From a virus (Duplodnaviria > Heunggongvirae > Uroviricota > Caudoviricetes): a DNA stretch of 47,428 nucleotides. The position numbers were made by a program, and so were the translations under genes. The stretch is taken from IMG/VR virus record IMGVR_UViG_2574180238_000003; one strand, 5' to 3'. Positions 4,576-21,256 of this stretch are shown here, piece after piece; the first letter of the stretch is position 1; each line of letters opens with the position of its first letter. The notes below the pieces were generated by a model that saw only the letters and a list, made by a program, of their open reading frames with translations, was not told the DNA's origin and searched no databases.

Positions 4576-4912
4576 AGTGATAACAGAGGTTGTTGTGGCT
4601 GGGGGGTCACTTAAGCGTATGGTCAACCTGACAACCCGGTGTCCTCAACGGGGGAAGGAATAACCCCGCCATACTTACCGCCGCGCTATTTCGCGGATTG
4701 CCACAACCGGAAACGCACGGTTGAAGAAATTTAACGACAAGCCTTATATGCAAAGGAATCTCGCCGTGCGCTTTCGTGTTATGCCCTGACTTTTCAGGGA
4801 TATATCCTTTCAGTAAACTGTCAGTGCCGGATTCTTATCCGTGTCCGGCGCACGACCACACGCTGTCACGAGAGGTCTCCATTCTCAACCAGTAACCTCA
4901 ATGGAGGATAAA

Positions 4913-5107
4913 ATGTCAGAGCAGGAGTTAAAACTTGGTGCATGTTATTGTGTTCTCAAGGAGCTGGTACACATGCTTCCATCTACTCAGTATCAACAGT
5001 TAGTTGGCAATTTAAATCAGCGAATCGAAGCTATGTTAAAATCTGATGGTTTTAATAACGTAGAAACGCTGATGCTAAAAAGATATCTTGATGGATTGAT
5101 CAGATAA
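4913..5107 (+). CDS. Hypothetical small protein (64 aa)
   Basis: ATG at 4913 preceded by GGAGGA (4901-4906); ORF MSEQELKLGACY...; convergent with the leftward operon and overlapping the 3' end of the 5075-5434 gene, so it may be spurious. Confidence 0.3.
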   Translation: MSEQELKLGACYCVLKELVHMLPSTQYQQLVGNLNQRIEAMLKSDGFNNVETLMLKRYLDGLIR

Positions 5108-5434
5108 CATTTTTTTACGGCGTTCATATTCGTTAATATTTATGAAGCCTGTTGCCAGAAGCAGTTCGTTAATTTCATGGTTGTTTGGCTGTTTCTGGCT
5201 CTTTGAACTGAGATCTTCCACTTCTTTTTCTGCAAATTGTTTTGCTGTATCCTCTGTGCCATGGATATTTAAAGCTGTATCTGAAAACAGCCCAGTAAAC
5301 GCATCGCGCACATTACGAGCCATATTATCAGTGTCTTTTTTTGTTACCGATTCCAATTCAAGTTCGTTCAGACGATGACGAAGTGTGTGTGCTGCAATCT
5401 CCTGGATTGAAGGCGGTAAATATTTAAATTCCAT
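5075..5434 (-). CDS. Hypothetical protein, first gene of leftward early operon
   Basis: ORF with internal start MEFKYLPP preceded by a GAGG Shine-Dalgarno; acidic, helical-looking protein; no family recognised. Confidence 0.5.
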   Translation of the reverse strand: MEFKYLPPSIQEIAAHTLRHRLNELELESVTKKDTDNMARNVRDAFTGLFSDTALNIHGTEDTAKQFAEKEVEDLSSKSQKQPNNHEINELLLATGFININEYERRKKMLSDQSIKISF

Positions 5435-5778
5435 CGTCAACCTCATCAGTCAGTGTTTCTTGCTAACCAGCGATGCGCGCCAGCTGCGGTTTTAAACGTT
5501 TTACTTTTGGTATACGTCATCACGGTGAAGGTGCCGTCCTAGTTAGGGAACACACCGCATACCAGAGATTCGTTGTTGCTAAGATTGAGCGTATCCATGT
5601 TGACCTCATTTCCCCTTAACGCCGGGGTAGCGGAACTAAAAACCTGCTGCGCTGTTATACAAAGTGTTCCCGCCGTCATGTTCATACGCCTCGGGCTGGC
5701 TACTTAACCCCTAATCACTGCCGGGTAACTCGAAGTATTGCCCGGTGTTCTGTGGGCGGGGTGGGTTGGTATGGGAGA

Positions 5779-5850
5779 ACTATAGGTAATGCCTAATTAA
5801 TTGTCAATAGGCTGCGCCTAATGTTTTTGACGAAAACCTAATAGGCGATG
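5779..5850 (-). promoter_or_regulatory. Leftward early promoter (PL-like) with repressor operator half-sites
   Basis: On the minus strand: TTGACA (5807-5802), 17-bp spacer, TATAGT (5784-5779). The gcctaat / attaggc motif recurs at 5791-5797, 5816-5822 and 5837-5846, the same motif as in the operators between the repressor and cro-like genes. Confidence 0.5.
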
Positions 5851-5917
5851 ATATGTGGAAGAGGTGATGGGGGGCTAGATAACGGGCTCTAGGAGGTTCC
5901 CATCAGACCATATAAGT

Positions 5918-6394
5918 TTAAGTTCCCGTTTTGGTGATGTTCTGGCTTTTCCGTTCTGATTCTTGATCTTTCAAATACTTACCTACCTTCATCTCCATTG
6001 TGGCAATGTAGGCGCGAACGTCATGATCAACCCAACCAGGTTCCGTGGCATTTGCTGATAAGAGAAAAGCCACAATGGCTCTTTTTTCATCAGAGGCGGC
6101 TTGATAAAGGCTGTTTATGTCTAAAAGTTCACTTTTTGTATCTGAAATGAGGGAGGTGGGTATGGGGTATTCGTTAAGCCCCCAATGCTCTGGGCCAACC
6201 ACATCAGAAAAGAAACGCCATAGCTCTGGAAGTTTATCTTTACTTATCGAACCTTTCTTAATCCAATCATAGATTGATGGTGGTTGGACTTTGAAGTGAC
6301 GCGCTACCTCCGCCTTTGATTTGACGGATCCTGATGCAATTTTTTTGTTAATGGCCTGCTCTATCGCTCGGCCTAAGTCTTTACCACTAAGCAT
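5918..6394 (-). CDS. Prophage repressor, RacR-like (XRE/CI-type HTH)
   Basis: 158-aa ORF divergent from a YdaS/YdaT-like pair; N-terminal HTH-like segment (SKAEVARHFKVQPPSIYDWIKKG); same length and context as Rac RacR. Confidence 0.7.
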   Translation of the reverse strand: MLSGKDLGRAIEQAINKKIASGSVKSKAEVARHFKVQPPSIYDWIKKGSISKDKLPELWRFFSDVVGPEHWGLNEYPIPTSLISDTKSELLDINSLYQAASDEKRAIVAFLLSANATEPGWVDHDVRAYIATMEMKVGKYLKDQESERKSQNITKTGT

Positions 6395-6519
6395 TGCTTA
6401 ATACTCTCCTATGCTCATTGCATTAGGCAATCCCTACTTCATTTGCGTTAGGCGACGCCTATTGACATTTGTATTAGGCGTCGCCTAATATTGTTTCGTG
6501 TTTTTTTGGAGTTCATTCG
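6395..6519. promoter_or_regulatory. Divergent promoter/operator region (OR-like) between repressor and cro-like gene
   Basis: Two 15-bp palindromes, ttaggcgacgcctat (6448-6462) and ttaggcgtcgcctaa (6474-6488), plus a half-site cattaggca (6421-6429); rightward promoter TTGACA (6462-6467) with TAATAT (6486-6491) overlapped by the second operator. Confidence 0.65.
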
Positions 6520-6843
6520 ATGAAAAAAGAGAACTATTCATTCAAACGAGCGTGTGCTGTTGTCGGTGGGCAATCTGCAATGGCTAGGCTTTTAGGTGTA
6601 TCACCTCCAAGCGTAAATCAATGGATCAAAGGTGTACGTCAGTTGCCTGCTGAGCGATGTCCAGCAATTGAACGTGCAACAAGAGGTGGTGTTCTGTGCG
6701 AAGAACTTCGTCCTGATGTTGACTGGTCATACTTACGACGCTCGTCATGCTATTCGCTGAATATGTTGATGAAGCAACCAAATGACGAAAACGAGCATAC
6801 CCGAAATATCAAGAGGCAAATGATTCATGAAAATCAGCCATGA
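6520..6843 (+). CDS. ydaS: YdaS-like Cro/CI-family HTH protein
   Basis: 107-aa ORF with HTH (QSAMARLLGVSPPSVNQWIKG); divergent from the repressor; followed by an overlapping YdaT-like gene, as in Rac. Confidence 0.7.
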   Translation: MKKENYSFKRACAVVGGQSAMARLLGVSPPSVNQWIKGVRQLPAERCPAIERATRGGVLCEELRPDVDWSYLRRSSCYSLNMLMKQPNDENEHTRNIKRQMIHENQP

Positions 6844-7252
6844 GCACATCCGCATGGCGATGAATGCCTGGGCGCATCCGGATGGCGAGAAAGTACCAAC
6901 TGCGAAGATTACCAAAGCGTATTTTGAACTGGGAATGACATTTCCGGAACTGTACGGCGACAGCCATCCGGAAGCCCTAGCTCGTAATACCCAGAAAATT
7001 TTCCGCTGGGTAGAGAAAGACACCCTTGATGCTGTTGAAAAAATTCAGGCGTTGTTACCAGCGATCGAAAAGGCAATGCCACCTTTGCTGGTGGCCCGAA
7101 TGCGCAGCCACAGTTCAGCCTATTTTCGGGAGCTGGTGGAGACGCGGGAACGACTGGTGAGAGACGCTGATGATTTTGTCGCAGTGGCGATTGCCGGTTT
7201 CAATCAGATGAACCGTGGTGGCCCGGCAGGAAATGCCGTGGTGATGCACTAA
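6827..7252 (+). CDS. ydaT: YdaT-like protein
   Basis: 141-aa ORF overlapping the end of the ydaS-like gene; size and context match Rac YdaT. Confidence 0.6.
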   Translation: MKISHEHIRMAMNAWAHPDGEKVPTAKITKAYFELGMTFPELYGDSHPEALARNTQKIFRWVEKDTLDAVEKIQALLPAIEKAMPPLLVARMRSHSSAYFRELVETRERLVRDADDFVAVAIAGFNQMNRGGPAGNAVVMH

Positions 7253-7260
7253 AAGCACGG

Positions 7261-7482
7261 ATGGCGTTAACAATGACGGAGGGGGCTGTGAATCTACCTG
7301 ATTTTTTTACTGTTCTTGCCTGTGGTATTGGTGGGGCTCTGGCCGGACATTTTATCGTGAATCTGTTCACCTGGTATCTCTTTGGTTTCAGGGATTACTT
7401 CACCCGATGGACTTTAAATTGTCTTCGTCGGTTCATTGGGCGCAAGCCTGATATGAGGATTTGGAAAGATGAAAAACGCTGA
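7261..7482 (+). CDS. Hypothetical small membrane protein
   Basis: 73-aa ORF with a hydrophobic core (FFTVLACGIGGALAGHFIVNLFTWYLFGF); no family recognised. Confidence 0.3.
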   Translation: MALTMTEGAVNLPDFFTVLACGIGGALAGHFIVNLFTWYLFGFRDYFTRWTLNCLRRFIGRKPDMRIWKDEKR

Positions 7483-7486
7483 TTGT

Positions 7487-7882
7487 TTATGGCATCGGGA
7501 GGCCGTTTTTCTCCCGATATCGCTCGATCTCTGCCTGAATTGCTGCAACAGCACACATGGAGTCGTACTGGATCAGTCTGAGATTTTCAATCGTGAATTT
7601 GTCTTCCTCCATCAGGTTGAGCATACGAAAGTATCGAAAGACGTAAACTTCTGGGCCGCTGACACCATACCCCTTTGCCTTCGATATGGTTTGGTGGAGC
7701 TCCCATTCTTTCAATGCGAGGGTGAGAGCCATTTCTCTTATTTTTGCTCTGGCTTCAGCAGCCCGGCGTTGCGCTTCAATGGTTCGTTCCGATTTGCGTT
7801 GCCAGGCACCATTAACCAGCGAAACCACGCCAGCAACACACGCACTCAACACAACGCTACTTGTGATAGTTGCAAAATCCAT
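7487..7882 (-). CDS. Hypothetical protein with N-terminal transmembrane segment
   Basis: 131-aa minus-strand ORF (N-terminal TM, then predicted coiled-coil) lying among plus-strand genes; protein-like composition, unlike the overlapping Cys-rich plus-strand ORF. Confidence 0.35.
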   Translation of the reverse strand: MDFATITSSVVLSACVAGVVSLVNGAWQRKSERTIEAQRRAAEARAKIREMALTLALKEWELHQTISKAKGYGVSGPEVYVFRYFRMLNLMEEDKFTIENLRLIQYDSMCAVAAIQAEIERYREKNGLPMP

Positions 7883-7961
7883 GTCGAACCTCCTCTGGTT
7901 CTGTTGATTAGTGAATCACAGATTATAACCAGAGGAAGGTTTGGCTCCAGACGAGGTGAAC

Positions 7962-9047
7962 ATGCGTGATTATGCAAAAGTTTCCCCGCGATTCTGGCTG
8001 GGAGAAACGGGGAGAGAACTTAGAAAGGCGGGTGCAGAAGCGCAAGTTGTTGCTTTTTACCTGATGACATCCCCTCACGCAAATATGTTGGGTTTGTATT
8101 ACCTGCCAGTTTTGTACCTTGCTCATGAATCCGGGCTTGGTCCGGAAGGGGCTTCGAAGGGGCTTAAAAGGGCTGTTGAAGCTGGTTTTTGTAGCTATGA
8201 CCATGATGCCGAGATGGTCTGGGTCCATGAAATGGCAGCCTGGCAGGTTGGGGAAACGTTGAAGCCTGGAGATAACCGTTGTGCAGGTGTCAGGAATGAG
8301 TATGCATCATTACCTGAAAACGCCTTTCTGTCAGCCTTTTACGACAGATATAAAACGGATTTCCATCTGGATGTGAGGCGGAATAATCGCCGGAATTCAG
8401 CAAGGGGCTTCGAAGAGGCTTTAAAGGGGCTTCTAAGCCAAGAACAGGAACAGGAGAAAGAACAGGATCAGGATAAAAATACTATGCTTCATGGCGAAAA
8501 AATCGCCACGAACCAGGCAGGGGATGTTCAGAACGTCAATCCTGGTCAGCCAGCAGGCACGACACCGGAAGCCGATTCGGGCGCTGTGCAGCAGGCGATG
8601 ACCGCAAGGCCGGAACAATCACACCAACTGCAGCAGCCTGAAGCCGATTCCGCCATTCAGCGGGAAGCCGATCAGGTAGTCCCGGAAAACACCGGGCAGC
8701 CTGTGGGACGAGTGGATTATCCGGATGTGTTCGAACAGGTCTGGCGGGAATACCCGTTGCGTGCCGGGGCAAACCCGAAGAAATCCGCTTTCAGTGCCTG
8801 GAAGGCCAGATTACGCGAGGGGGTGCCACCAGAGGCCATGCTGGATGGCGTGAGGCGTTACGCAAGATACTTGGCGACTACCGGGAAAACGGGAACGGAA
8901 TTTGTTCAGCGAGCGACGACGTTTTTTGGACCGGACCGGAATTTTGAAAACCCCTGGTTGCTCCCGGTAAGCGGCACGAACAACCAGCGTTGTGTGAATC
9001 ATGTTTCTGAACCGGATACCGAAATTCCGCCAGGCTTCAGGGGGTAA
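7962..9047 (+). CDS. Putative phage replication protein (YdaU/DUF1376-like N-terminal domain)
   Basis: ATG 7962 preceded by GAGGTG; N-terminal segment RFWLGETGRELRKAG...FYLMTSPHANMLGLYYLP, a low-complexity EQ-rich linker, and a Trp/Arg-rich C-terminal domain; in the replication-gene position after the immunity region. Family assignment is from memory. Confidence 0.5.
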   Translation: MRDYAKVSPRFWLGETGRELRKAGAEAQVVAFYLMTSPHANMLGLYYLPVLYLAHESGLGPEGASKGLKRAVEAGFCSYDHDAEMVWVHEMAAWQVGETLKPGDNRCAGVRNEYASLPENAFLSAFYDRYKTDFHLDVRRNNRRNSARGFEEALKGLLSQEQEQEKEQDQDKNTMLHGEKIATNQAGDVQNVNPGQPAGTTPEADSGAVQQAMTARPEQSHQLQQPEADSAIQREADQVVPENTGQPVGRVDYPDVFEQVWREYPLRAGANPKKSAFSAWKARLREGVPPEAMLDGVRRYARYLATTGKTGTEFVQRATTFFGPDRNFENPWLLPVSGTNNQRCVNHVSEPDTEIPPGFRG

Positions 9048-9087
9048 GTGTTTATTTCAGGTCATGAGGTAATTTTCAGGAGGGCTT

Positions 9088-9513
9088 GTGGCAAAAGTTT
9101 TTACACAAGAAGAGCGAGAAAAAATTAAAGGGCAGGTTGTTGAGCTAGTACGCCGGAGTGGGCGCGAGACGTTACGGCAACTGGAAGCCAAGACAGGTGC
9201 GACAAGATATCTGATGAGCGTTCTCGCCAGAGAGCTGGTTGCCAGTGGTGATGTATACAACTCTGGTTACGGGTTATTCCCGTCTGAACAGGCTCGTAAG
9301 GACTGGCAAAACGCCCGCAAAAAACTCTCAAGGGCAAAGCTGAAGAAAAAAACACCTGTGGTTGATCCGGACCTTATCTGGTCGTTACCAGACGGAGAAA
9401 TACGTCGTTATGACAGGCGTCAGAACATAATCTGTAGCGAGTGCCGGAAGAGCGAAGTTATGCAGCGCGTGCTGGCGTTTTATCAGGGGAATTTTCAGGA
9501 GGTGGTGCTGTGA
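9088..9513 (+). CDS. Hypothetical protein (possible winged-helix DNA-binding)
   Basis: 141-aa ORF with GTG start after GGAGGG; no family recognised. Confidence 0.45.
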   Translation: MAKVFTQEEREKIKGQVVELVRRSGRETLRQLEAKTGATRYLMSVLARELVASGDVYNSGYGLFPSEQARKDWQNARKKLSRAKLKKKTPVVDPDLIWSLPDGEIRRYDRRQNIICSECRKSEVMQRVLAFYQGNFQEVVL

Positions 9514-9570
9514 GTGAAATTAGCTATCAGGCTTCAATTGCCGCTGGCATTCGCATCAAAGGAGAGGAGC

Positions 9571-9927
9571 ATGGAAATAAAACCAGAAGATGAGTTAAGT
9601 AATATTGTTTTATTTCCGGTAAAAGAGGATGACCCACGTAATCAGGTTAATTTTCTTTATGAGCCATCGGAAAGGCCATATTGTCATCACGCCTCTGTCC
9701 GGGTTGACGAAAAAGAGCGTCAGGTCCGCTGTAAAATCTGCGGTGCAGTTGTGGAGCCATTTGACTGGATGCTCTCTGTTGCGAAAAGAGAAACCAGGCT
9801 GGCAGATGATGTAAAACTATTGCGCCTGGAGGAACAGGAAAGGCGAAAAAATATAGGAAAGCTAATTCAGATTGAGCGTAACGCGAAAGCGCGGATACGC
9901 AGAGCGACAAAATCCAGAACTGAATAA
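9571..9927 (+). CDS. Hypothetical protein with putative zinc-ribbon (CHH...CxxC)
   Basis: Internal ATG 9571 preceded by AAAGGAGAGGAG; Cys/His cluster YCHHASVRVDEKERQVRCKICG. Confidence 0.45.
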   Translation: MEIKPEDELSNIVLFPVKEDDPRNQVNFLYEPSERPYCHHASVRVDEKERQVRCKICGAVVEPFDWMLSVAKRETRLADDVKLLRLEEQERRKNIGKLIQIERNAKARIRRATKSRTE

Positions 9928-10021
9928 TTAAATTTAGCACTGCTAAAAATTAATCCTTAACCGGAGGGATTTCTGCACCCTCAGAACATCAGGAGACCGC
10001 CTGAAAGGGCGGTAATGAAAA

Positions 10022-10390
10022 ATGACTGAATTAACAAAAGAGCAATTAATCAAAGAAGCCAAATTAAAAATAGCGGTTGCGAAATGTTACCCTAATTCAG
10101 AGATGGCCAGGGTAGAGGGCGAGCTATTCAAAATTGCACTGGCATCGCTGGAAGCGGTTCCGGTGGCATGGCTGCATTCAGACAATGGCCTGGGTATTCC
10201 AGCAATAACCAGGAGTAAAAACGTTGCTGATAGTTGGTTATCAAAGGGCTGGTATGTTCAGCCGTTATATGTAGCCCAACCAGTACCGGTGGTGCCGGAT
10301 GCTCGTCCATCTTTAAATAATGGCATTGTCGGATTTGATGAAGGCTGGAATGCCTGCCGGGATGCCATGCTTAATGGAGATAAATCATGA
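10022..10390 (+). CDS. Hypothetical protein
   Basis: 122-aa ORF in the nin-like region; ATGA overlap with the next gene. Confidence 0.5.
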   Translation: MTELTKEQLIKEAKLKIAVAKCYPNSEMARVEGELFKIALASLEAVPVAWLHSDNGLGIPAITRSKNVADSWLSKGWYVQPLYVAQPVPVVPDARPSLNNGIVGFDEGWNACRDAMLNGDKS

Positions 10391-10869
10391 TTAATCGTAT
10401 CAAGCTGGAGCACATCCTCGAATATGCCAGGCAGCAGAAATGTATTGGGCAACTTTGTAAAATTCCACCAGGGGATATGGTTGAGATCATGGAAATAGCT
10501 ATGCGTCAGGCTGGCAACTTTCAGGTAATTCCTGATGACGGTCGCGAACAGTTCGAAGCGCTTATCAGGTTCTATGCGGATGATAAAAACCATGAAACAT
10601 TGTTGCTTCGTGCTAACGAAGGGATGAATTACCGGGATCCAAATGTGGATTTGGCGTGGATATCCTGGAAATCCAGCCGAGAGCACATATTGCCGGGAAA
10701 AAGCGACAATAATCCAGCATCAGGCGATCAGGTAAGTGAATTAACAATGTGGGTGAAGCGGTTATCTCATTCCTTAAAAAGCGTTAATAAATCAAGCAAA
10801 CTACCGGATAAAGCGATGGACTACCTGAAGCGAAACGGACTGATAAACGAGGAGGATATTTTACGATGA
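10387..10869 (+). CDS. Hypothetical protein
   Basis: 160-aa ORF translationally coupled to the upstream and downstream ORFs. Confidence 0.5.
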   Translation: MINRIKLEHILEYARQQKCIGQLCKIPPGDMVEIMEIAMRQAGNFQVIPDDGREQFEALIRFYADDKNHETLLLRANEGMNYRDPNVDLAWISWKSSREHILPGKSDNNPASGDQVSELTMWVKRLSHSLKSVNKSSKLPDKAMDYLKRNGLINEEDILR

Positions 10870-10949
10870 CCAGGCCTGAAGCGTTCATAACGGTAGGAAT
10901 AGCAATGGCGGTGGCGCTGGTGGTGTATTCGATTTGTCGCTGGGGATAA
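10866..10949 (+). CDS. Small hydrophobic peptide (27 aa)
   Basis: ATGA overlap with the upstream gene stop; MTRPEAFITVGIAMAVALVVYSICRWG is a single predicted transmembrane helix. Confidence 0.3.
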   Translation: MTRPEAFITVGIAMAVALVVYSICRWG

Positions 10950-11159
10950 AAACGGTTTGCGGGGAAAGAAGAGTTAAGTAGAATTGCTGCGGGTGCTTGA
11001 GGCTGTTTGCCTCGGGCATGCCGCCGTAAGGCAGACAGAGAAAAGCCCCAGTTAACATTACGCGTCTTGCAGGACGCTTAACATTAATCTGAGGCCCAAT
11101 CTATGCTTCACAAACGTAGGTTAGCCTCTTACGTGCCGAAAGGCAAGGAGAAGCAGGCT

Positions 11160-11315
11160 ATGAAGCAGCAAAAGGCGATGTTAATCGCCCTGATCGTCAT
11201 CTGTTTAACCGTCATAGTGACGGCACTGGTAACGAGGAAAGACCTCTGCGAGGTACGAATCCGAACCGGCCAGACGGAGGTTGCTGTCTTCGTAGACTAC
11301 GAATCTGAGAAGTAA
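11160..11315 (+). CDS. hokD: Hok/Gef-family type I toxin (HokD/RelF-like)
   Basis: MKQQKAMLIALIVICLTVIVTALVTRKDLCEVRIRTGQTEVAVF... matches the Hok family signature and recalled RelF/HokD; GC hairpin ggcgagggagaaatccctcgcc (11325-11346) just downstream, typical of hok mRNA 3' ends. Confidence 0.85.
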   Translation: MKQQKAMLIALIVICLTVIVTALVTRKDLCEVRIRTGQTEVAVFVDYESEK

Positions 11316-11393
11316 GAGTGACCAGGCGAGGGAGAAATCCCTCGCCACCTCTGATGTGTCAGGCATCCTCAACGCACCCGCACGTCCCCCGTT

Positions 11394-11756
11394 TTGGCAG
11401 ACTTTGTTTTTTCCTGGCATTCTGGTTTACAATTCGCACGTCAGCCTGAACAACTGGCACCTGCTGCGTCACCGGAGAACCCGATGGCGCAACATATAAA
11501 ATCCCACAATTCTGAAGTCGATCCGACCATTAAGCGGGGGCGGCGTTCACACGTATTTAAAACCGACTGGTTCCAGCATGACCTATGCACTGAAGAACAG
11601 GCCGAATGGCTGATCCAGTGTTACCGCAGGCGCGGATATGAGTTTGAGAAAGCCCTCAGCTTCGATCGTCGTCACTGGATAATCTCCGTCAGGCTCCCTT
11701 ATTCCGAACGCCCACCGCGTCCGTCCCGCACATTCCAGCAGCGCATCTGGAGGTAA
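11394..11756 (+). CDS. Hypothetical protein
   Basis: ORF between hok and the DUF968 gene; probable start at an internal Met (MAQHIKSHNSEV, 11484). Confidence 0.4.
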   Translation: MADFVFSWHSGLQFARQPEQLAPAASPENPMAQHIKSHNSEVDPTIKRGRRSHVFKTDWFQHDLCTEEQAEWLIQCYRRRGYEFEKALSFDRRHWIISVRLPYSERPPRPSRTFQQRIWR

Positions 11757-11757
11757 C

Positions 11758-12807
11758 GTGCGGGTATTACTTCGACCTGTTCTGGTACCGGAACTCGGTC
11801 TGGTTATCGTTAAGCCAGGCCGTGAATCAATGTCAGTATTCCATAACGGCAGAATATTGGTGGAGCCGGAACCGAAAAACATGCGCGGTCTGCCGTCCGG
11901 AGTCGTTCCTGCCGTTCGCCAGCCGCTGGCAGAGGATAAAACATTACTGCCATTTTTCAGCGATGAGCGGGTTATTCGTGCAGCAGGTGGTGCAGGTGCA
12001 CTGTCTGACTGGTTATTACGTCACGTGAAATCCTGCCAGTGGCCACACGGCGATTATCATCACAGCGAAACCGTCATTCACCGTTACGGTACCGGCGCGA
12101 TGGTGTTGTGTTGGCACTGTGACAACCAGCTGCGCGACCAGACATCAGAATCACTCGATCAACTTGCTCAGCAGAATCTGGTTGCCTGGATGATTGACGT
12201 CATCCGTCACGCAATAAGCGGTACGCAGGAGAGGGAGTTATCGCTGGCCGAATTATCCTGGTGGGCGGCCTGCAATCAGGTGGTGGATGCACTGCCTGAG
12301 GCAGTAGCGCGTCGTTCGCTGGGATTACCAGCGGAAAAAATCCGCTCCGTATACCGTGAGAGTGACATCGTACCGGGAGAACAGACAGCCATCAGCATAC
12401 TGAAGCAGCGCACAAAAAATATTGCGCTGCCACTTCACGTCCACCAGCAACAAAATCCACCACAGAAAAAAACGGTTGTCAGTATCGCTGTTGATCCGGA
12501 GTCTCCTGAATCGTTCATGAGGCGGCCTAAACGTCGCCGTTGGGTTAATGAGAAATACACGCGCTGGGTAAAGACACAGCCGTGTGCGTGTTGTGGTAAG
12601 CCAGCTGACGATCCGCATCACCTGATTGGTTATGGTCAGGGGGGAATGGGAACAAAGGCCCACGATATTTTCACGCTACCGTTGTGCCGGGAGCACCACA
12701 ACGAACTTCATGCAGACCCGCTGGAGTTTGAGAAAAAGTACGGCTCTCAGATTGAGTTAATTTTTCGTTTTCTTGATCACGCCTTTGCGACTGGCGTGCT
12801 CGGGTAA
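11758..12807 (+). CDS. YdfU-like DUF968 protein (Cys/His-rich C-terminal putative nuclease domain)
   Basis: 349-aa ORF; C-terminal CACCGKPADDPHHLIGYGQGGMGTKAHD...CREHHNELH cluster; same length and hok-adjacent context as Qin YdfU. Confidence 0.65.
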   Translation: MRVLLRPVLVPELGLVIVKPGRESMSVFHNGRILVEPEPKNMRGLPSGVVPAVRQPLAEDKTLLPFFSDERVIRAAGGAGALSDWLLRHVKSCQWPHGDYHHSETVIHRYGTGAMVLCWHCDNQLRDQTSESLDQLAQQNLVAWMIDVIRHAISGTQERELSLAELSWWAACNQVVDALPEAVARRSLGLPAEKIRSVYRESDIVPGEQTAISILKQRTKNIALPLHVHQQQNPPQKKTVVSIAVDPESPESFMRRPKRRRWVNEKYTRWVKTQPCACCGKPADDPHHLIGYGQGGMGTKAHDIFTLPLCREHHNELHADPLEFEKKYGSQIELIFRFLDHAFATGVLG

Positions 12808-12819
12808 AAGAGGTGACTG

Positions 12820-13179
12820 ATGCTCATAGATTTGGTTTTACCTTACCCGCCGACGGTGAACACTTACTGGCGTCGTCGTGGCAGCACATATTTTGTCTCA
12901 AAAGCCGGGGAGCGTTATCGCCGGGCAGTGGCGCTTATTGTTCGCCAGCAGCGGCTGAAATTAAGACTGTCCGGACGGCTGGCAATAAAAATTATTGCAG
13001 AGCCACCGGATAAGCGTCGTCGTGACCTGGACAATATTCTGAAAGCGCCGCTGGATGCGCTGACGCATGCGGGAATGTTAATGGACGATGAGCAGTTTGA
13101 TGAAATCAATATTGTACGTGGTCAGCCAGTATCTGGTGGACGGCTGGGTGTGAAGATTTACAAAATTGAGAGTGAGTGA
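12820..13179 (+). CDS. rusA: RusA Holliday-junction resolvase
   Basis: 119-aa ORF; LPYPPTVNTYWR... N-terminus and the DKRRRDLDN acidic motif match the RusA family; nin-region position upstream of Q. Confidence 0.85.
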   Translation: MLIDLVLPYPPTVNTYWRRRGSTYFVSKAGERYRRAVALIVRQQRLKLRLSGRLAIKIIAEPPDKRRRDLDNILKAPLDALTHAGMLMDDEQFDEINIVRGQPVSGGRLGVKIYKIESE

Positions 13180-13187
13180 GCGTAAAT

Positions 13188-13718
13188 ATGATATATCCGG
13201 AAATTACAGGCAAAAGCGGCGAACATTTACGCCTGAACACGCTGGAAGCAGTCTGGATCCAGGGGAAATTACGGATGTGGGGGCGGTGGTCGTATATCGG
13301 TGGGGGTAAATCCGGAAATATGTTTAACCGGTTACTGGTTTCGAAAAAACTGACGAAAACCGCAGTTAATGAGGTTTTACGCAGAATGAAGAAATCCGGG
13401 CTGGATAAACCGGAACTTGAGGCATTTTTTCGGGATATGACAAGAGGAAAGCAGAAGAGCTGGTTGTCACATTGTACAGACACAGAGGCGTTGATTATTG
13501 ATCGCGTTATCAGTGAGGTGCTTGGGGAATATCCCGGGCTAATCAATGTTCTCCGGCAAAGGTACGAAGGACGGGGAATGAGTAAGAGAAAAATGGCAGA
13601 ATGTTTAAATCGTACTCACCCGGAATGGTGCTTCAGCACATGTGAGAAACGTATTGCAGGTTGGTTAGCCGTGGCTGAACACATGCTTTATGTACCTATG
13701 CACGATTCATTTCGATAA
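13188..13718 (+). CDS. Late-gene antiterminator Q
   Basis: 176-aa ORF directly upstream of the late region (methylase, tRNAs, lysis genes), downstream of rusA; Cys/His-containing C-terminus; assigned mainly by position and size. Confidence 0.65.
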   Translation: MIYPEITGKSGEHLRLNTLEAVWIQGKLRMWGRWSYIGGGKSGNMFNRLLVSKKLTKTAVNEVLRRMKKSGLDKPELEAFFRDMTRGKQKSWLSHCTDTEALIIDRVISEVLGEYPGLINVLRQRYEGRGMSKRKMAECLNRTHPEWCFSTCEKRIAGWLAVAEHMLYVPMHDSFR

Positions 13719-14157: not shown

Positions 14158-14307
14158 AGGCTTTTTTATTTGTGGTAAATGGGCGGCTGGTGGGTGTTAG
14201 GGGCACTCACCAGCCATCTGCTCATGCGTCCGGATCACAAGCAAACCTCAGGCCCACTGCTTTGCGCAAAAGCAGAATGAGCCTATCAGAGACAGGCTTA
14301 ATGATCC

Positions 14308-15366
14308 ATGTTTAATACTGTAAAAATATCCAGTTGTGAGTTGATCAACGCTGACTGCCTGGAATTTATCCGGTCGTTACCCGAAAATTCTGTTGACCTG
14401 ATAGTCACGGCCCCGCCGTACTTTAAAGTGAAGCCTGAGGGCTGGGATAACCAGTGGAAGGGCGACGATGATTACCTGAAATGGCTGGACCAGTGTCTGG
14501 CGCAGTTCTGGCGGGTGCTGAAACCTGCCGGAAGTCTTTACCTGTTCTGTGGCCATCGCCTGGCATCTGACATTGAAATCATGATGCGAGAACGCTTCAG
14601 TGTGCTGAACCATATTATCTGGGCGAAGCCGTCCGGACGCTGGAACGGGTGCAACAAGGAAAGCCTGAGGGCGTATTTCCCCGCCACAGAGCGCATTCTG
14701 TTCGCGGAACATTATCAGGGGCCGTATCGTCCGAAAGATGCCGGGTATGAGGCGAAGGGCAGGGCACTGAAACAGCATGTGATGGCACCGCTGATTGCTT
14801 ACTTTCGTGATGCGCGTGCTGCCCTGGGGATAACGGCAAAACAGATTGCTGATGCCACAGGAAAGAAAAACATGGTGTCGCACTGGTTCAGTGCCAGTCA
14901 GTGGCAGTTACCGAACGAAAGCGATTATCTGAAATTACAGGTGCTGTTTGCCCGGGTGGCAGAAGAGAAGCATCAGCGGGGTGAACTGGAAAAGCCCCAC
15001 CACCAGCTGCTGGAGACGTATACTTCACTGAACCGGCAGTATGCGGAACTGCAGAGTGAATATAAGCATCTGCGGCGGTATTTTGGCGTGACGGCGCAGG
15101 TGCCGTACACGGATGTGTGGACGCATAAACCGGTGCAGTACTATCCCGGGAAACATCCGTGCGAAAAACCGGCAGAAATGCTGCAGCAGATAATCAGCGC
15201 GAGCAGTCGTCCGGGTGACCTGGTTGCAGATTTTTTCATGGGGTCGGGTTCGACAGTCAAAGCCGCGATGGCGCTGGGGCGGCGTGCAACTGGCGTTGAG
15301 CTGGGGACTGAACGTTTTGAGCAGACGGTCAGAGAAGTTCAGGATTTAGTCAGTCAGAACGGATGA
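14308..15366 (+). CDS. Orphan DNA methyltransferase (beta-class amino-MTase)
   Basis: 352-aa ORF; catalytic TAPPY motif near the N-terminus and AdoMet-binding FMGSGST near the C-terminus (circularly permuted order typical of beta-class MTases); no adjacent restriction enzyme. Confidence 0.85.
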   Translation: MFNTVKISSCELINADCLEFIRSLPENSVDLIVTAPPYFKVKPEGWDNQWKGDDDYLKWLDQCLAQFWRVLKPAGSLYLFCGHRLASDIEIMMRERFSVLNHIIWAKPSGRWNGCNKESLRAYFPATERILFAEHYQGPYRPKDAGYEAKGRALKQHVMAPLIAYFRDARAALGITAKQIADATGKKNMVSHWFSASQWQLPNESDYLKLQVLFARVAEEKHQRGELEKPHHQLLETYTSLNRQYAELQSEYKHLRRYFGVTAQVPYTDVWTHKPVQYYPGKHPCEKPAEMLQQIISASSRPGDLVADFFMGSGSTVKAAMALGRRATGVELGTERFEQTVREVQDLVSQNG

Positions 15367-15406
15367 TATTGCAGGATTAGTTACGTACCGTTATTATCCT
15401 GCGCCC

Positions 15407-15482
15407 GGCCCTTTAGCTCAGTGGTGAGAGCGAGCGACTCATAATCGCCAGGTCGCTGGTTCAAATCCAGCAAGGGCCACCA
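15407..15482 (+). tRNA. tRNA with CAU anticodon (Ile2/lysidine-type, ileZ-like; Met not excluded)
   Basis: 76-nt cloverleaf: acceptor GGCCCTT/AAGGGCC, D-arm GCTC..GAGC, anticodon loop CTCATAA, T-loop GGTTCAAATCC, 3' ACCA encoded; close to recalled E. coli ileX. Confidence 0.85.
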
Positions 15483-15491
15483 TATCACATA

Positions 15492-15568
15492 CCGCCATTA
15501 GCTCATCGGGATAGAGCGCCAGCCTTCGAAGCTGGCTGCGCGGGGTTCGAGTCCTCGATGGCGGTCCA
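15492..15568 (+). tRNA. tRNA-Arg (anticodon UCG)
   Basis: 77-nt cloverleaf: acceptor CCGCCAT/ATGGCGG, anticodon stem CCAGC/GCTGG with loop CTTCGAA, T-arm CGGGG-TTCGAGT-CCTCG, 3' TCCA. Confidence 0.8.
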
Positions 15569-15846
15569 TTATCTGCATTATGCGTTGTTGGTTCTGATGA
15601 GTGAATCATTGTCTTTTGAGCAACAGGCTATCATATAAGATAGCCTCAGACTTCCTTGTTTATTCTCGCCGGATGCTTCGTAGATATTTGCAGGCATCTG
15701 TATGCAGGGGTATTATTGCGGCATATATCATCCGGAAAAATAAAAACTACATGCTGATCCGGAGATGATAGTTACAAGTCCTCCCGGATCCCGCATATTT
15801 ACTATATTTTATAGATAATTGTTCTTGTTAATATGGAGATGGATAA

Positions 15847-16275
15847 ATGTATTGCCGTGCTGTACCGGTTCTTGTTTTGATATTAGCCAGTCTGACAACT
15901 GGCTGCACAAAAGATGTATCGACAAATAATCATGATGCTTCTCTGTATCACTCAGATAAATTAATAAAGTCGCAAAATTTGAGCTCATCGGAACGTACCC
16001 CTGATGCCAGTGAAGAAATCCGGCAGTATGCCATTCAGGTCAGGAAAGCCATAGAAGAACAGTTAAAGGATGCGAGTAAGTATTCAGGAAAAGAGTGTTC
16101 ACTGAGAATGTATATGGCCCCGAATGGTCTTCTGCTACAGGTTAAAAGAGAAAGCGGTGATCCCGATTTATGTCGTGAAGCGATGAATGCAGTAAAGAAT
16201 GCTGATATACCATCACCACCGTCTTCAGGAGTATATAAAGCATTTAGAAATGGCGTGCTGGATTTTAAACTCTGA
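15847..16275 (+). CDS. Lipoprotein with TolA C-terminal domain (domain III)-like region
   Basis: Signal peptide plus lipobox LTTGC; C-terminal ~80 aa (IQVRKAIEEQLKDASKYSGKECSLRMYMAPNGLLLQVKRESGDPDLCREAMNAVKNADIPSPPSSGVYKAFRNGVLDFKL) align to recalled E. coli TolA domain III including the conserved Cys pair; AT-rich upstream flank. Confidence 0.7.
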   Translation: MYCRAVPVLVLILASLTTGCTKDVSTNNHDASLYHSDKLIKSQNLSSSERTPDASEEIRQYAIQVRKAIEEQLKDASKYSGKECSLRMYMAPNGLLLQVKRESGDPDLCREAMNAVKNADIPSPPSSGVYKAFRNGVLDFKL

Positions 16276-16334
16276 CAGGGGGAGAAGATTTTCTCCTGTC
16301 CTGATGATTTTGGGGCGCTGGAAAGATATTGTGC

Positions 16335-16590
16335 TGTGAAGTGTTAAATCCCTCACAATTCAGTAAGTTGACAGTTGCCTGTCAGACTGAGCATTTGTTA
16401 AAAAAATTTCGCATGGTGAATCCCCCTGTGCGGAGGGGCGACTGGTGAACGGTATGATCTCTTTGATGATCGTAAGCGAGAATACGCGGGTTTGGTGTCA
16501 CCGGGCTGAACTCACCGGGAGGCACCCGGCACCATGCTCATGGTGATACAGAAATGCGGCTTCAGCCCCTCTCCGGAGGGGCTTTCTTAT
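16335..16590 (+). repeat. Structured repeat unit 1 of 4 (candidate sRNA)
   Basis: Conserved blocks ttaaatccctcacaattcag, gcatggtgaatccccctgtgcggaggggc, caccgggaggcacccggcaccatgc, and terminator hairpin gcccctctccggaggggc with T-run. Confidence 0.6.
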
Positions 16591-16746
16591 GGACAAAAAA
16601 AGCCCGCGCTGGGAGACGCGGGCGGCAAGGAATAAACAATAAAACGTGAAGTAATACTTCAACTGGCGAATAATACCCGACAGTAATCACTCTGCGCAAT
16701 AGCGTGGCCTTTTTCGAATTGCGGGCTGTAGTCTCCCTTCTGCCGG

Positions 16747-16900
16747 GTGTCCTGGTTGCAGATTTCTTCATGGGGTAGGGTTCGGCAGTTAAAGCAGCGA
16801 TGGCGCTGGGGCGTCGTGCAACTGGCGTTGAGCTGGATACCGGGCGTTTTGAACAGACTGCGCAGGAAATCAGGGATGTATTTAGCGGGAGCGGTTTGCA
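16747..16900 (+). pseudogene. 3' fragment of a DNA methyltransferase gene (paralogous to 15216-15366), in-frame stop
   Basis: Nucleotide similarity to the 3' end of the intact methylase gene; translates as VLVADFFMG*GSAVKAAMALGRRATGVELDTGRFEQ... Confidence 0.7.
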
Positions 16901-16970
16901 GAAGTAATCTCCCAAAATGCCATTTTTGGAATATACTGGTATTAAGTCTTTTTGCTCAGGTTAATTCAAA

Positions 16971-17696
16971 ATGGATGTTGCCTGCTCTGTGGTCCTGATT
17001 CGCTATCCGATAGATATTTTTCTTGAAAAAGAAAAAGTTTCACTCGATGCCGGAAGTGTTATGCTTGTTGCCAGAAATATAAGAGGGCTTTTCTGTGCTT
17101 ATGCCGACAGAGTGAAAATGGCAGATATAAGTAACAGCGTCGTCAATCAGTATCTGGAAAGGGAGTGTGAACTGACGGAGTATACACCGACAAAAATGCC
17201 TCTTTATTTGATGTCTGATATTTACAATACGGAACTGGCGGAGGCTTTAATAACCCAGCATAGTGAATCCAGTGATACTTTGAAGGATTTCTCTGTTATA
17301 ACCGCATTTTCATGTATCTCCTTATTTGCAACAGACAGACGTCTGCCATTATTTTTGTCCGGTGCTGTAAATAATATCAGCTGTAAAGTAAGGGCTATAA
17401 TTCAGACCGACATATCGGCAGGCTGGATGCTTGGTGTGATTGCATTACAATTGCATATGAGCGAAAGCTTGTTGAAGCGAAAACTTAAGGATGAAGGTTA
17501 TAGCTTTAGTCGGTTGTTGCTGGAGGAGCGAATGCGTGTTGCTGTTAATCTTGTATGTTTCCAGCGAGAGTGTGGACAAGCGATAGCGGAAAAATGTGGT
17601 TACTCAAGTAAGTCCTACTTCATTTCTGTATTTCACCAGTATTATGGTGCACCACCTGAGAGCTATGCATATTTGCAGAAAGCAGACGTTATCTGA
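16971..17696 (+). CDS. AraC-family transcriptional regulator
   Basis: 241-aa ORF; C-terminal AraC-type dual HTH (GWMLGVIALQLHMSESLLKRKLKDEGYSFSRLLLEERMRVAVNLV...KCGYSSKSYFISVFHQYYGAPPESY); AT-rich gene in the accessory block. Confidence 0.8.
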   Translation: MDVACSVVLIRYPIDIFLEKEKVSLDAGSVMLVARNIRGLFCAYADRVKMADISNSVVNQYLERECELTEYTPTKMPLYLMSDIYNTELAEALITQHSESSDTLKDFSVITAFSCISLFATDRRLPLFLSGAVNNISCKVRAIIQTDISAGWMLGVIALQLHMSESLLKRKLKDEGYSFSRLLLEERMRVAVNLVCFQRECGQAIAEKCGYSSKSYFISVFHQYYGAPPESYAYLQKADVI

Positions 17697-17785
17697 TGTT
17701 TTTTCATCAGGCATATATTGATTGACTGTATTAGATATAGTCTGAATGTGTTCAGCATAAAAAGTTATAATCATTTGGTGTTTGC

Positions 17786-18064
17786 GTGAATATTGATGAG
17801 AAAATCAGATGTAGCCAACTGTTACAGCGTATTGAAGCCGTCAATGTGGAACGAACAAAGGTCTTCAGTCGTCTGACAGTTTTATTTTGTACCCCTGATC
17901 GACGTTCAGGTCAGGAGATGGTTCTTCTGGATGTAGATGCACTTCGGAACGTCTGTGAGGAGTTCACCGCGGCTAATTCGGAGTTACTGAGTCTTGTTCA
18001 GGAGTACAACAGAATTGCAGGTAGTAACGGTTTTGATGAAATCAAAATTATATCCCGTGGATAA
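17786..18064 (+). CDS. Hypothetical protein
   Basis: 92-aa ORF (GTG start, or ATG 17796) downstream of the AraC gene. Confidence 0.35.
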   Translation: MNIDEKIRCSQLLQRIEAVNVERTKVFSRLTVLFCTPDRRSGQEMVLLDVDALRNVCEEFTAANSELLSLVQEYNRIAGSNGFDEIKIISRG

Positions 18065-18304
18065 AACATATCCTGTATATTTATGTTGTTACATACAGGC
18101 GCTTTTAGTATCTGCCGCACGGCAGTTGTACTTCAGAATAAGATGCTTTTGTGACTGGTGGTGTTGTATCTGGGGTTAGCCAGTAGGCAGGTTCAGAGAG
18201 TCCGGTGGTAATTATGTGTATGCAGTGGTTGTTGCTGTACCGTGGGCAAGTTCTGGAACTGGCTTCGTCCATTGTAGATGATTGTTAGCTGGATATCAGT
18301 TACC

Positions 18305-18548
18305 TCATGGAAATGTTAAATGACTCACAATTCGGTTGATGGGCTATTGTCTGATCGATGGAAGTCTTGTAAAAACGAGCCAGCATAGTGAATCCCCCTG
18401 TGCGGAGGGGCGTCTGACATGGTCTCCATAGCGATGGTCACAATACGCAGATTCAGTAGTCAGGCTGAATCTACCGGGAGGCACCCGGCACTATGCTGCT
18501 TATGGTGTATACATAGCGATCGGCCCCTCTCCGGAGGGGCTTTTTTTG
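18305..18548 (+). repeat. Structured repeat unit 2 of 4
   Basis: Same block order as unit 1; long-range helix gcatagtg (18383-18390) / cactatgc (18489-18496) carries a compensatory base-pair change relative to unit 1; terminator gcccctctccggaggggc plus T7. Confidence 0.6.
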
Positions 18549-18564
18549 TGCGGGAAAAGGCTGT

Positions 18565-18806
18565 GTTGTTAAGTGTTAAATTCCTCACAGTTCAGATGGT
18601 TGATGCTTGCCTGTCTGAGGGGGCGTTGTTAAAAAAGTTCTGCATGGTGAATCCCCCTGAGCGGAGGGGCATATCAGCGCAGGTGTTTCTACTCTATCCT
18701 TTCTGTGCGGGTTCAGGTGCTGATACTGAACTCATCGGGAGGCACCCGGCATCATGCATATGGTTAACAGACACGTAGCGAAGCCCCTCTCCGGAGGGGC
18801 TTTTTT
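18565..18806 (+). repeat. Structured repeat unit 3 of 4
   Basis: Same blocks; helix gcatggtg / catcatgc (G-U wobble); terminator gcccctctccggaggggc plus T6. Confidence 0.6.
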
Positions 18807-18824
18807 ATGCAGGGAAAAGGCTGT

Positions 18825-19062
18825 GTTGTGAAATGTTAAATTCCTCACAATTCATGAGGTTGATGATTGTCTGATTGATGAGGAGTTTGTTAAAAAAAAC
18901 GGGCATGGTGAATCCCCCTGTGCGGAGGGGTGATATCGTATCATTTCCTGTGTGGCCGACTGATATCACGGACATTTGTTCACCGGGAGGCACCCGGCAC
19001 CATGCAGTATACAGAGATTAGGCATACATCCAGGCTCCTCATCGCAGGAGCCTTTTTACATG
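18825..19062 (+). repeat. Structured repeat unit 4 of 4
   Basis: Same blocks; helix gcatggtg / caccatgc; different terminator sequence (ggctcctcatcgcaggagcc plus T5) in the same position. Confidence 0.6.
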
Positions 19063-19291
19063 TAAAAAAAAAAACGCTCCTGGGAAGAGCGGTTGGCAAG
19101 GAAGCAAGGAATAAATAACAAAACGTGAAGTAATTTATTCAGCACCCTAATAATACCTTAGAGTAATCACATTGCGCAACTGTAAGGGCGTATTTCTTTT
19201 TTGCGGGCTGTTTTTCTGTGTGACTTTTGTGTTTCCGGAGGTCAGCCCGTGCCTTCTCTGACTCAGAACATTATCCCGGCCGGGAGGATTC

Positions 19292-21256
19292 ATGGCATTT
19301 AAACACTACGATGTGGTCAGGGCGGCATCGCCGTCAGACCTTGCTGAACGACTGACACAAAAACTGAAGGAGGGCTGGCAGCCATTTGGCAGTCCGGTGG
19401 CCATCACGCCTTATACCCTGATGCAGGCCATTGCGGCGGAAGGTGATGTCACCACACCAGTGGCGGTGACCGGTAATGAGGGTAAGGCGGTGGCTGTCAG
19501 TGCCACCAGCGACCCGGAGTATTACTTTGTTGTGGTTCTGGCAGGGCAGTCAAATGGCATGTCGTATGGTGAAGGTCTTCCGCTGCCGGAGACATATGAC
19601 CGTCCGGACCCGCGCATTAAGCAGCTGGCGCGCCGCAGTACGGTGACACCGGGCGGTGCAGCATGCAAATATAACGACATCATTCCGGCGGACCATTGTC
19701 TGCATGATGTGCAGGACATGAGCCGCCTTAACCATCCGAAAGCGGACCTGTCAAAGGGGCAGTACGGTACCGTGGGGCAGGGGCTGCATATCGCCAAAAA
19801 ACTGCTGCCGTTTATACCGGCGAATGCGGGTATTCTGCTGGTTCCGTGCTGTCGTGGGGGTTCAGCGTTCACCACCGGAGCTGATGGCACATACAGTGAC
19901 GCTGGCGGTGCCTCGGAGAATTCAGCGCGCTGGGGTGTGGACAAGCCGCTGTATAAGGACCTTATCGGTCGAACAAAAGCAGCACTGAAGAAGAACCCGA
20001 AAAATGTGCTGTTTGCCGTGGTGTGGATGCAGGGGGAATTTGATTTTGACGGCACGCCCGGAAATCACGCAGCACAGTTTGGTGCGCTGGTTGATAAATT
20101 CCGTGCAGACCTGGCGGATATGGCAGGCCAGTGCGTCAGTGGCTCTGCTGGCGGTGTTCCCTGGATATGCGGGGACACGACGTATTTCTGGAAGCAGAAG
20201 AACGAATCCACGTACCAGACGGTGTACGGCAGCTATAAAAACAAAACGGAAAAGAATATCCATTTCGTACCGTTCATGACGGATGAGAACGGGGTGAATG
20301 TGCCGACGAACAAACCGGAAGAAGACCCGGACATTCCGGGTATCGGGTATTACGGTTCGAAATGGCGTGACAGCTCAGCCCCCTGGACGTCACAGGACAG
20401 GGCGAGCCATTTCAGCACCTGGGCACGCCGGGGGATTATTTCCGACCGTCTGGCAACGGCGATTCTGGTGCACGCCGGGAGAACCGCTGAATTCATTACC
20501 GGAAAACAGCCTGATATGGTGAAGCCCACCGTACCTTCCGGTGAAGGTCCGGAGAGAGAGGCGGAAGCCCCGGTCAGTAACCGAACCCTGATGAGTCTGC
20601 TGGCATCCGGCGAAGACCTGGCATCACAGGGCTGGCGCTATTATCACAAACCGGCGGGCGGGGACAGTGTTAACAAAAACATTGCTGAAGCGGTGGTCAG
20701 TGATGCGGGGGCTACGGGAGGTAAGGCTCTGCAACTGAACAAACCGGAAAACCACATCTGGTTTCTGGAGCATGATGCAGCCGGACAGGGTGCGGAGTTA
20801 CTGAAGAAGGGCGGACGTGTGAGCGTACGGTTTAAGTTGCCGGGTTCACTGGTGCCGAATCAGTTTGCCCTGGGCATTTACTGGCAGTTGTCGTCCCTGC
20901 CGGAGGGGGTGACGCTGTCAGGAGAAGGTAACGATATGCTGATGTCTTTCTTCCTGCAGACGGATACGACGAACCTGAACGCGATGCATCACAGGAAGCC
21001 GAATGCGAAGCTGGATACATTCGGGGTCTTTGATAACGGATGGCACACGCTGGCTTTTGAGTTTGCCGGAAACAACAGCATTCAGGTGACACCAGTACTG
21101 GATGAGAAACGGGGAGCGGCGTTCACACTGGTGAAGTCACCGGCATCGGGGGCGGCGGACAAACTGCAACTGACCGATATATCAAAATCGGCGACGTATA
21201 CGCTGCTGATTGACAGCATTGCGGTGGAAGTGAACAGCACAGACACTGCGGCATGA
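19292..21256 (+). CDS. NanS-p-type sialate O-acetylesterase (SGNH/SASA hydrolase)
   Basis: 654-aa ORF; GQSN catalytic motif (VVVLAGQSNGMSYGEG); location between Q/tRNAs and the lysis cassette as in Stx-type lambdoid phages. Confidence 0.75.
   Translation: MAFKHYDVVRAASPSDLAERLTQKLKEGWQPFGSPVAITPYTLMQAIAAEGDVTTPVAVTGNEGKAVAVSATSDPEYYFVVVLAGQSNGMSYGEGLPLPETYDRPDPRIKQLARRSTVTPGGAACKYNDIIPADHCLHDVQDMSRLNHPKADLSKGQYGTVGQGLHIAKKLLPFIPANAGILLVPCCRGGSAFTTGADGTYSDAGGASENSARWGVDKPLYKDLIGRTKAALKKNPKNVLFAVVWMQGEFDFDGTPGNHAAQFGALVDKFRADLADMAGQCVSGSAGGVPWICGDTTYFWKQKNESTYQTVYGSYKNKTEKNIHFVPFMTDENGVNVPTNKPEEDPDIPGIGYYGSKWRDSSAPWTSQDRASHFSTWARRGIISDRLATAILVHAGRTAEFITGKQPDMVKPTVPSGEGPEREAEAPVSNRTLMSLLASGEDLASQGWRYYHKPAGGDSVNKNIAEAVVSDAGATGGKALQLNKPENHIWFLEHDAAGQGAELLKKGGRVSVRFKLPGSLVPNQFALGIYWQLSSLPEGVTLSGEGNDMLMSFFLQTDTTNLNAMHHRKPNAKLDTFGVFDNGWHTLAFEFAGNNSIQVTPVLDEKRGAAFTLVKSPASGAADKLQLTDISKSATYTLLIDSIAVEVNSTDTAA

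Follow-up and report, generated by a model that had tools for sequence, protein, structure and literature searches.

A methylase remnant marks the apparent illegitimate join of two cargo layouts in a lambdoid prophage of Escherichia coli

Introduction

The mosaic genomes of lambdoid phages contain "novel joints" that arise by illegitimate joins and that homologous recombination of a relaxed kind later reshuffles (Martinsohn et al. 2008, PMC2327257; De Paepe et al. 2014, PMC3945230). The recombinases of these phages act on sequences that differ by up to 22% (PMC2327257; see also PMC3945230). In Shiga toxin (Stx)-type phages, the "moron" region that extends from Q/pR' to the lysis genes carries a methylase gene, the ileZ-argN-argO tRNA genes, stxAB, a small RNA (sRNA) gene, and nanS-p. 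The same backbone order is found in the 47,428-nucleotide (nt) stretch of IMG/VR virus record IMGVR_UViG_2574180238_000003 (here, the window), which is a lambdoid, non-Stx prophage of Escherichia coli. Its late accessory region contains an intact DNA methyltransferase (methylase) gene and, farther downstream, a remnant of the 3' end of such a gene.

An earlier note on this DNA, made from the sequence alone, took the remnant for a duplicate of the 3' end of the resident gene and proposed that it marks the place where two arrangements of accessory genes were joined by homologous recombination. The present comparison with complete genomes, IMG/VR loci, and draft contigs agrees that the remnant lies at a mosaic junction where accessory cargo arrangements fused. 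As to the mechanism, it leads us to a different reading, which we hold with good confidence: two layouts were joined illegitimately in an event of single origin, and homology-driven exchange came afterward.

Results

The resident methylase and the remnant share a direct repeat in which 103 of 116 positions are identical (15211-15326 versus 16743-16858, 88.8% by global alignment). A repeat search pairs 15211-15362 with 16743-16894 at 80% (overall identity, 77.6 to 80%), and beyond the 116 nt the tails diverge (15327-15366 versus 16859-16907, 54% identical and different in length). The recurrence of the last ~150 bp of the gene, on which the earlier note was built, is real and far beyond chance, but only these first 116 nt are highly similar, and the positions given for it were a few bases off. 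Because the C-terminal tail is divergent, the remnant appears to be the dead 3' end of a second, different methylase allele with its own tail, rather than a recent copy of the resident gene.

Translation of the remnant reads PGVLVADFFMG*GSAVKAAMALGRRATGVELDTGRFEQTAQEIRDVFSGSGLQK* (asterisks, stops), which bears out the in-frame TAG reported earlier, and is 96% identical to the C-termini of E. coli methyltransferases carrying PF01555. About 298 codons are missing, the DNA upstream being trailer sequence of the preceding sRNA unit, and the motif aspartate is lost (GAC to GTC in the window and GGC in locus L006 of strain STEC2018-607). Between the two lineages that carry the remnant (see below), it differs at about 9 of 165 positions versus ~3.9% in the flanks, which would suit decay, although the comparison is based on a small sample and confounded by gene conversion. 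Because of the missing codons, the stop, the loss of the motif aspartate, and the free variation between lineages, the remnant is most likely functionless. As to a regulatory role, this conclusion is limited by the single test behind it, a consensus promoter scan, which gave no plus-strand promoter site for the following AraC gene in 16600-16970. RefSeq, through the Prokaryotic Genome Annotation Pipeline (PGAP), already annotates the same sequence as a pseudogene ([quoted passage not shown]; e.g., C6W75_RS13055 in NZ_CP027462 and JFX52_RS28340 in NZ_CP075697), but these calls say nothing on the junction, the parental layouts, or later exchanges.

Upstream of the remnant, the window follows a layout that exists on its own elsewhere. 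Arrangement A (methylase, two tRNAs, TolA-like lipoprotein, one STnc100 sRNA unit, trailer, nanS-p) forms one uninterrupted stretch in strain G1/2, where the lipoprotein gene runs on into the unit, the trailer, and nanS-p. About 30 other complete genomes have this layout, as judged from a single-piece match of ~91% to a synthetic A-type junction query.

The trailer homology to the arrangement A loci of strains O157:H7 86-24 (L003), VR50 (L005), and G1/2 (L020) ends at 16744 (...GCGGGCTGTAGTCTCCCTTCTGCC / ...CTTCTGCC), and methylase homology begins abruptly at 16743-16745, where the trailer homology stops. Across the breakpoint, arrangement A reads CTTCTGCC and then ATTGTCCTG, and the methylase reads GCAGTCGTCC and then GGGTGACCTG. 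Past it, the arrangement A loci run ATTGTCCTGTAACTTCCGG... for 72 nt to the ATG of the esterase gene, whereas the window goes on with methylase sequence, GGGTGTCCTGGTTGCAG...; intact methylases have ...GCAGTCGTCC in front of GGGTGACCTGG. The only microhomology at the joint is a "CC" shared by both parents. A further imperfect match, TGTCCTG, lies 2 to 3 nt downstream, in arrangement A and the window-type remnant only. More than 1000 genomes match 16600-16754 at ~92%. Because just "CC" is common to the parents at the breakpoint, the join appears to be illegitimate, out of register, and non-homologous.

It is very unlikely, in our judgment, that homologous recombination through the methylase 3' end joined the two arrangements and left the remnant, as had been suggested. 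A patch of 116 nt at 88.8% identity would suffice for phage recombinases active at 22% divergence (PMC2327257), and homology-driven exchanges do happen at this patch. However, a crossover inside the shared 116 nt yields a single intact chimeric gene and no remnant, as in strain SMBL and IMG/VR loci L017 and L018 (see below). In addition, its left edge abuts trailer DNA with an overlap of 2 nt and no flanking similarity. A shared stretch at or beside the crossover, which is the mark of a homologous joint, was seen for the secondary events only and is absent from the left joint.

The composite junction is present in 88 of 5426 complete E. coli genomes, and an assembly artefact was rejected on these grounds. 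The AraC gene accompanies it in 79 of the 88. The remaining composites, e.g., that of STEC2018-607 (L006), have the same joint and the same TAG without 16941-18219, and in L006, L008, and L013 the sequence jumps from window position 16940 to 18220. Composites with and without AraC represent two lineages that are ~4% apart; because both have the identical breakpoint and TAG, the join is most likely a single old event. No deposited phage genome carries the composite, the best coverage of 14300-19300 being 44%.

The order of elements in the window (methylase end, unit and trailer, methylase end, units and trailer) could also suggest an internal tandem duplication of one phage's block, from the methylase 3' end through unit and trailer, which then diverged and received the AraC module. 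The earlier note had likewise paired 16335-16745 with 18825-19230 as a duplicated unit-plus-trailer block. These two segments are homologous, but their relationship is old (matches in 67.6% of alignment columns, or at 81.6% of the positions aligned). The two halves of the region are 67 to 89% identical to each other, whereas each is 91 to 99% identical to separate loci elsewhere, and a duplication would have kept trailer 1 whole, yet it is truncated. We give this explanation almost no credence; duplication within one phage was rejected since the halves are far closer to loci elsewhere than to each other.

We see as little chance that a tRNA-lipoprotein-sRNA cassette was inserted site-specifically into the methylase 3' end and brought a replacement 3' end with it, in the manner of integrative elements at tRNA genes. 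The geometry fits, in that the incoming copy would restore the gene and the displaced 3' end would be left at the far side. However, no integrase or recombinase gene lies in or beside the block (none between 15367 and 19291), the repeats are 88.8% identical rather than the same, and our genome comparisons did not reveal the same 1.5-kb block at the same codon of unrelated methylase alleles or phages. At its right edge, the block ends in a truncated trailer, which in arrangement A phages continues into nanS-p; the block is thus part of the phage late region. A site-specific recombinase cassette was rejected because of the missing recombinase and this right edge, a truncated piece of ordinary late region.

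The second layout, arrangement B, has a methylase with the distinct tail (B tail) followed directly by the same AraC gene. Among the complete genomes, only that of strain SMBL shows this order (1 of 5426), and it recurs in L017, L018, and draft contig L026. The two arrangements thus exist separately, as the earlier note had supposed, but the B loci are recombinant. Compared with the remnant region of the window, SMBL has 6 differences in 16750-16796, followed by only 7 over 1645 nt, a clustering with a P value of ~1e-4 (scan-statistic simulation). At all six sites SMBL agrees with the window's resident methylase, and over 14943-15281 the two are identical. Its methylase therefore follows the common allele up to 16796 (remnant coordinates) and the remnant allele from 16843 at the latest, so that the crossover falls within the 116-nt repeat, between 16797 and 16843. 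The chimeric pattern is the same in L017 and L018, and in L026 the B tail is joined to yet another methylase allele. In L026, an insertion sequence (IS) element with an rve-family transposase (1792-3020 of the contig) lies between the AraC gene and nanS-p and replaces or interrupts the sRNA units.

These patterns suggest that the loci with an intact methylase followed by AraC are chimeric rather than pristine parents. The simplest reading is that SMBL-type loci derive from the composite by a crossover between the direct repeats that deleted the 1532-nt block of tRNAs, lipoprotein, unit, and trailer.

Alternatively, the SMBL-type locus might be the true ancestral arrangement B from which the composite arose, the differences at the 5' end of the remnant being later decay. 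We consider this unlikely, although less so than the other alternatives. SMBL-type loci do exist, and their downstream DNA is 99.6 to 99.8% identical to that of the composites; the TAG and the 16750 change may plausibly have arisen by mutation after the join, and the base at 16750 differs between the two composite lineages (T or G). On the other hand, the six differences are concentrated in the first 47 nt of the remnant, three of them are synonymous, as is expected of allelic differences rather than of decay, and composites outnumber SMBL-type loci by 88 to 1 in complete genomes. Moreover, the presence of the tail on yet another allele in L026 implies that it was re-joined repeatedly.

Several observations weigh against our own reading. 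The 5' parts of the SMBL-type methylases are only 98.4% identical to the best composite, and direct descent from the composite's resident allele is therefore not proved; these loci could equally be the product of an in-register exchange of a B-type phage with a common-allele phage, with no composite stage. A pristine B parent, i.e., an intact methylase with the remnant-specific variants, was not found in the 5426 E. coli genomes (best match, 92.1% over 114 nt), and all 10 matches in an exact 26-mer scan of IMG/VR for the remnant variants are composites. In addition, two of the variants counted as remnant specific, TTC and GCAGCG, are shared with other, intact alleles. The existence of a pristine B parent is thus something that we infer. 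Further searches gave the same result: among the matches listed in a scan of GTDB species representatives, there were distant relatives at 50 to 76% amino acid identity and no pristine B parent, and a search of 5.8 billion proteins yielded only short partial proteins at contig ends and a 67-amino-acid junction open reading frame (ORF).

The 67-amino-acid protein (P0009) points to another form of exchange. Its first residues, MAFFELRAVVSLLPG, are encoded by trailer 1 from the GTG at 16705 onward, and the frame reads into the methylase without a stop. Its contig (L025, with the ORF at 1386-1589; draft genome GCA_000647455.1) is a composite with the same left joint, but the remnant is of a common intact-type allele (Z563-like) from the joint to ~16849 and then has the B tail. 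L025 carries a gene conversion patch that happens to remove the TAG. No complete genome has the patch-converted junction, the best full-length match being of the window type (95.9%). In the window, the frame opened by the same GTG crosses the junction and ends after 24 amino acids at the TAG (16705-16778).

The features of the region are listed in Table 1.

Table 1. Features of the window, in positions of the 47,428-nt stretch
Feature	Position	Strand	Evidence and remarks
Integrase	1-1119		Start of prophage; followed by Cro-, RusA-, and Q-type genes and then the late accessory region
Small TrmB-like ORF			First in accessory region, before the methyltransferase
Resident intact N6/N4 DNA methyltransferase, 352 amino acids	14308-15366	+	ORF; Pfam PF01555, E=1.6e-42; annotated as DNA-methyltransferase in near-identical genomes
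Direct repeat copy 1, 116 nt	15211-15326	+	In resident methylase, region of motif DxFxGSGST
Two phage tRNAs, anticodon CAT and Arg-TCG	15407-15568	+	ARAGORN, PGAP
Lipoprotein with TolA C-terminal domain, 142 amino acids	15847-16275	+	PF06519, E=5.7e-23; phrog_5772; arrangement A cargo
STnc100 sRNA unit 1 with terminator	16382-16594	+	Rfam RF02076, 172.4 bits; terminator at 16564-16583; arrangement A
Trailer 1, truncated	16595-16744	+	150 nt; 72 nt more in arrangement A loci, up to the nanS-p ATG
Putative illegitimate junction	16743-16746	+	Breakpoint between 16744 and 16745; CC (16743-16744) common to both parents
Methylase 3' remnant, last 54 codons, apparently of a different allele	16743-16907	+	165 nt; TAG at 16776-16778, natural stop TAA at 16905-16907
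Direct repeat copy 2	16743-16858	+	In remnant
AraC-family regulator, 241 amino acids	16971-17696	+	Pfam HTH_18, HTH_AraC; arrangement B cargo
ORF92	17786-18064		phrog_2873, unknown function
AraC and ORF92 module, 1279-nt indel	16941-18219	+	Missing from some composites with the same junction
STnc100 sRNA units 2-4	18354-18549, 18614-18812, 18874-19063	+	Rfam, 119.5-141.3 bits
Trailer 2, complete	19064-19291	+	Alignments; runs into nanS-p
nanS-p-type sialate O-acetylesterase	19292-21256	+	DUF1737, SASA, DUF6645

The repeat units next to the junction are four copies of STnc100 (Rfam RF02076), with scores of 119.5 to 172.4 bits against a gathering score of 47 and matches to model positions 1-206. 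Each has its own terminator, and pairwise they are 66 to 72% identical, a degree of divergence that suggests diverged paralogues or separately acquired copies rather than a recent array. Their position upstream of a sialate esterase gene is the one described for the STnc100/PasD family of prophage sRNAs (Zhu, Shabalina and Storz, bioRxiv 2026, doi 10.64898/2026.05.13.724894), and the copy number of 1 + 3 in the window is the product of joining two layouts. In both trailers, a minus-strand terminator-like hairpin (16602-16623 and 19075-19091) follows just after the plus-strand sRNA terminator and would provide a bidirectional stop; the region has 12 terminator-like sites versus 3.4 expected.

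The AraC-family regulator shares 58% identity with an AraC-like protein encoded by an O157:H7 prophage, in which the gene occupies the methylase slot near a PerC/Pch gene. This setting is the one described for PsrA/PsrB (PMC10877973).

With respect to the cargo of arrangement A, the lipoprotein has the lipobox LTTGC and is named "cell envelope integrity protein TolA" by PGAP, while PHROGs lists its function as unknown. It might serve in the periplasm as a decoy for Tol-dependent colicins or filamentous phages. For the tRNA with anticodon CAT (15407-15482), ARAGORN gives Met and PGAP gives Ile (ileZ-like).

Elsewhere in the window, a sok antitoxin RNA (RF01794, 115.8 bits) at 10991-11165 points to a hok/sok-type module in the early-right region, and the 823-amino-acid protein adjoining the integrase (1419-3890, minus strand) carries an Rv2179c-like 3'-5' exonuclease domain at its C-terminus. 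The ten ORFs scanned, all in window positions 1-13718, include no Red-beta, RecT, or Erf recombinase.

Discussion

From the sequences, the breakpoint mapped to the base, the independently occurring layouts, and the chimeric and converted loci, we infer the following order of events and the enzymology behind it. A genome of layout A would have been broken 72 nt before the start codon of nanS-p, and one of layout B (methylase with a distinct C-terminal tail, possibly AraC and ORF92, STnc100 units, trailer, nanS-p) about 54 codons before the methylase stop. The ends were presumably joined with the shared "CC", either through an unequal illegitimate crossover of two lambdoid genomes resident together or through a deletion spanning tandem prophages, giving a hybrid that keeps both cargo sets and one intact methylase. 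After the join, the remnant, most likely having no function of its own, may have gained the TAG and other changes. Since it repeats, in direct orientation and at 89% identity, 116 nt of the resident gene 1532 nt upstream, it could then exchange with intact methylase alleles. Such later exchanges, by phage or host homologous recombination, would account for the patch conversion of L025 and for the chimeric methylases upstream of AraC in SMBL, L017, L018, and L026; in the SMBL type, the crossover would amount to a secondary loss of the tRNA-lipoprotein-sRNA block.

More tentatively, the remnant and the 3' end of the resident gene may act as a 116-nt homeologous "handle" by which this prophage lineage repeatedly drops the 1.5-kb tRNA-lipoprotein-sRNA cassette and regains it through exchange with other prophages, an intact chimeric methylase being restored each time. 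The loci compared here include natural examples of three states (the composite itself, its patch-converted version, and the resolved form), but we regard repeated turnover as possible rather than probable. If it does take place, the locus would serve, on a small scale, as a natural model in which the homeologous turnover of cargo in resident prophages can be measured.

The junction locates, at single-base resolution, the fusion of two cargo sets, one consisting of the TolA-domain lipoprotein and the tRNAs and the other of the Psr-like AraC regulator and the extra STnc100 sRNAs. It marks the lineage cleanly, with 88 occurrences among 5426 complete genomes, and its hosts are mainly bovine or Shiga toxin-producing E. 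coli (STEC)-type strains. Its practical value is modest, and no new mechanism or gene function is revealed. The locus is nevertheless a natural worked example of two-step phage mosaicism, in which a rare illegitimate join makes the layout and relaxed homologous recombination edits it by conversion or deletion.

The remnant is an ordinary scar of phage mosaicism in a Stx-phage-type cargo region, already annotated as a pseudogene. What our analysis adds is that homology acts after the join and that the loci resembling a parent B are recombinant in their own right. As in the mosaic joints described for lambdoid phages, ancestry switches abruptly with almost no shared sequence, both layouts circulate, and the ~89% patch in the flank is later a substrate for homeologous exchange. 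Unlike the usual joints of this kind, the one in the window lies within a gene and out of register, and the outcome is a gene fragment and a doubled cargo region instead of a module swap. In the methylase, tRNAs, unit, and nanS-p, Stx2 phages are 92 to 95% identical to the window; they have three tRNAs (Ile, Arg, Arg), as do O157 prophages, where the window has two, and stxAB in the slot that the lipoprotein gene occupies here. In contrast to Stx phages, the window lacks stx and carries the TolA-domain lipoprotein and, behind the remnant, a second cargo set that comprises AraC, ORF92, and three sRNA units.

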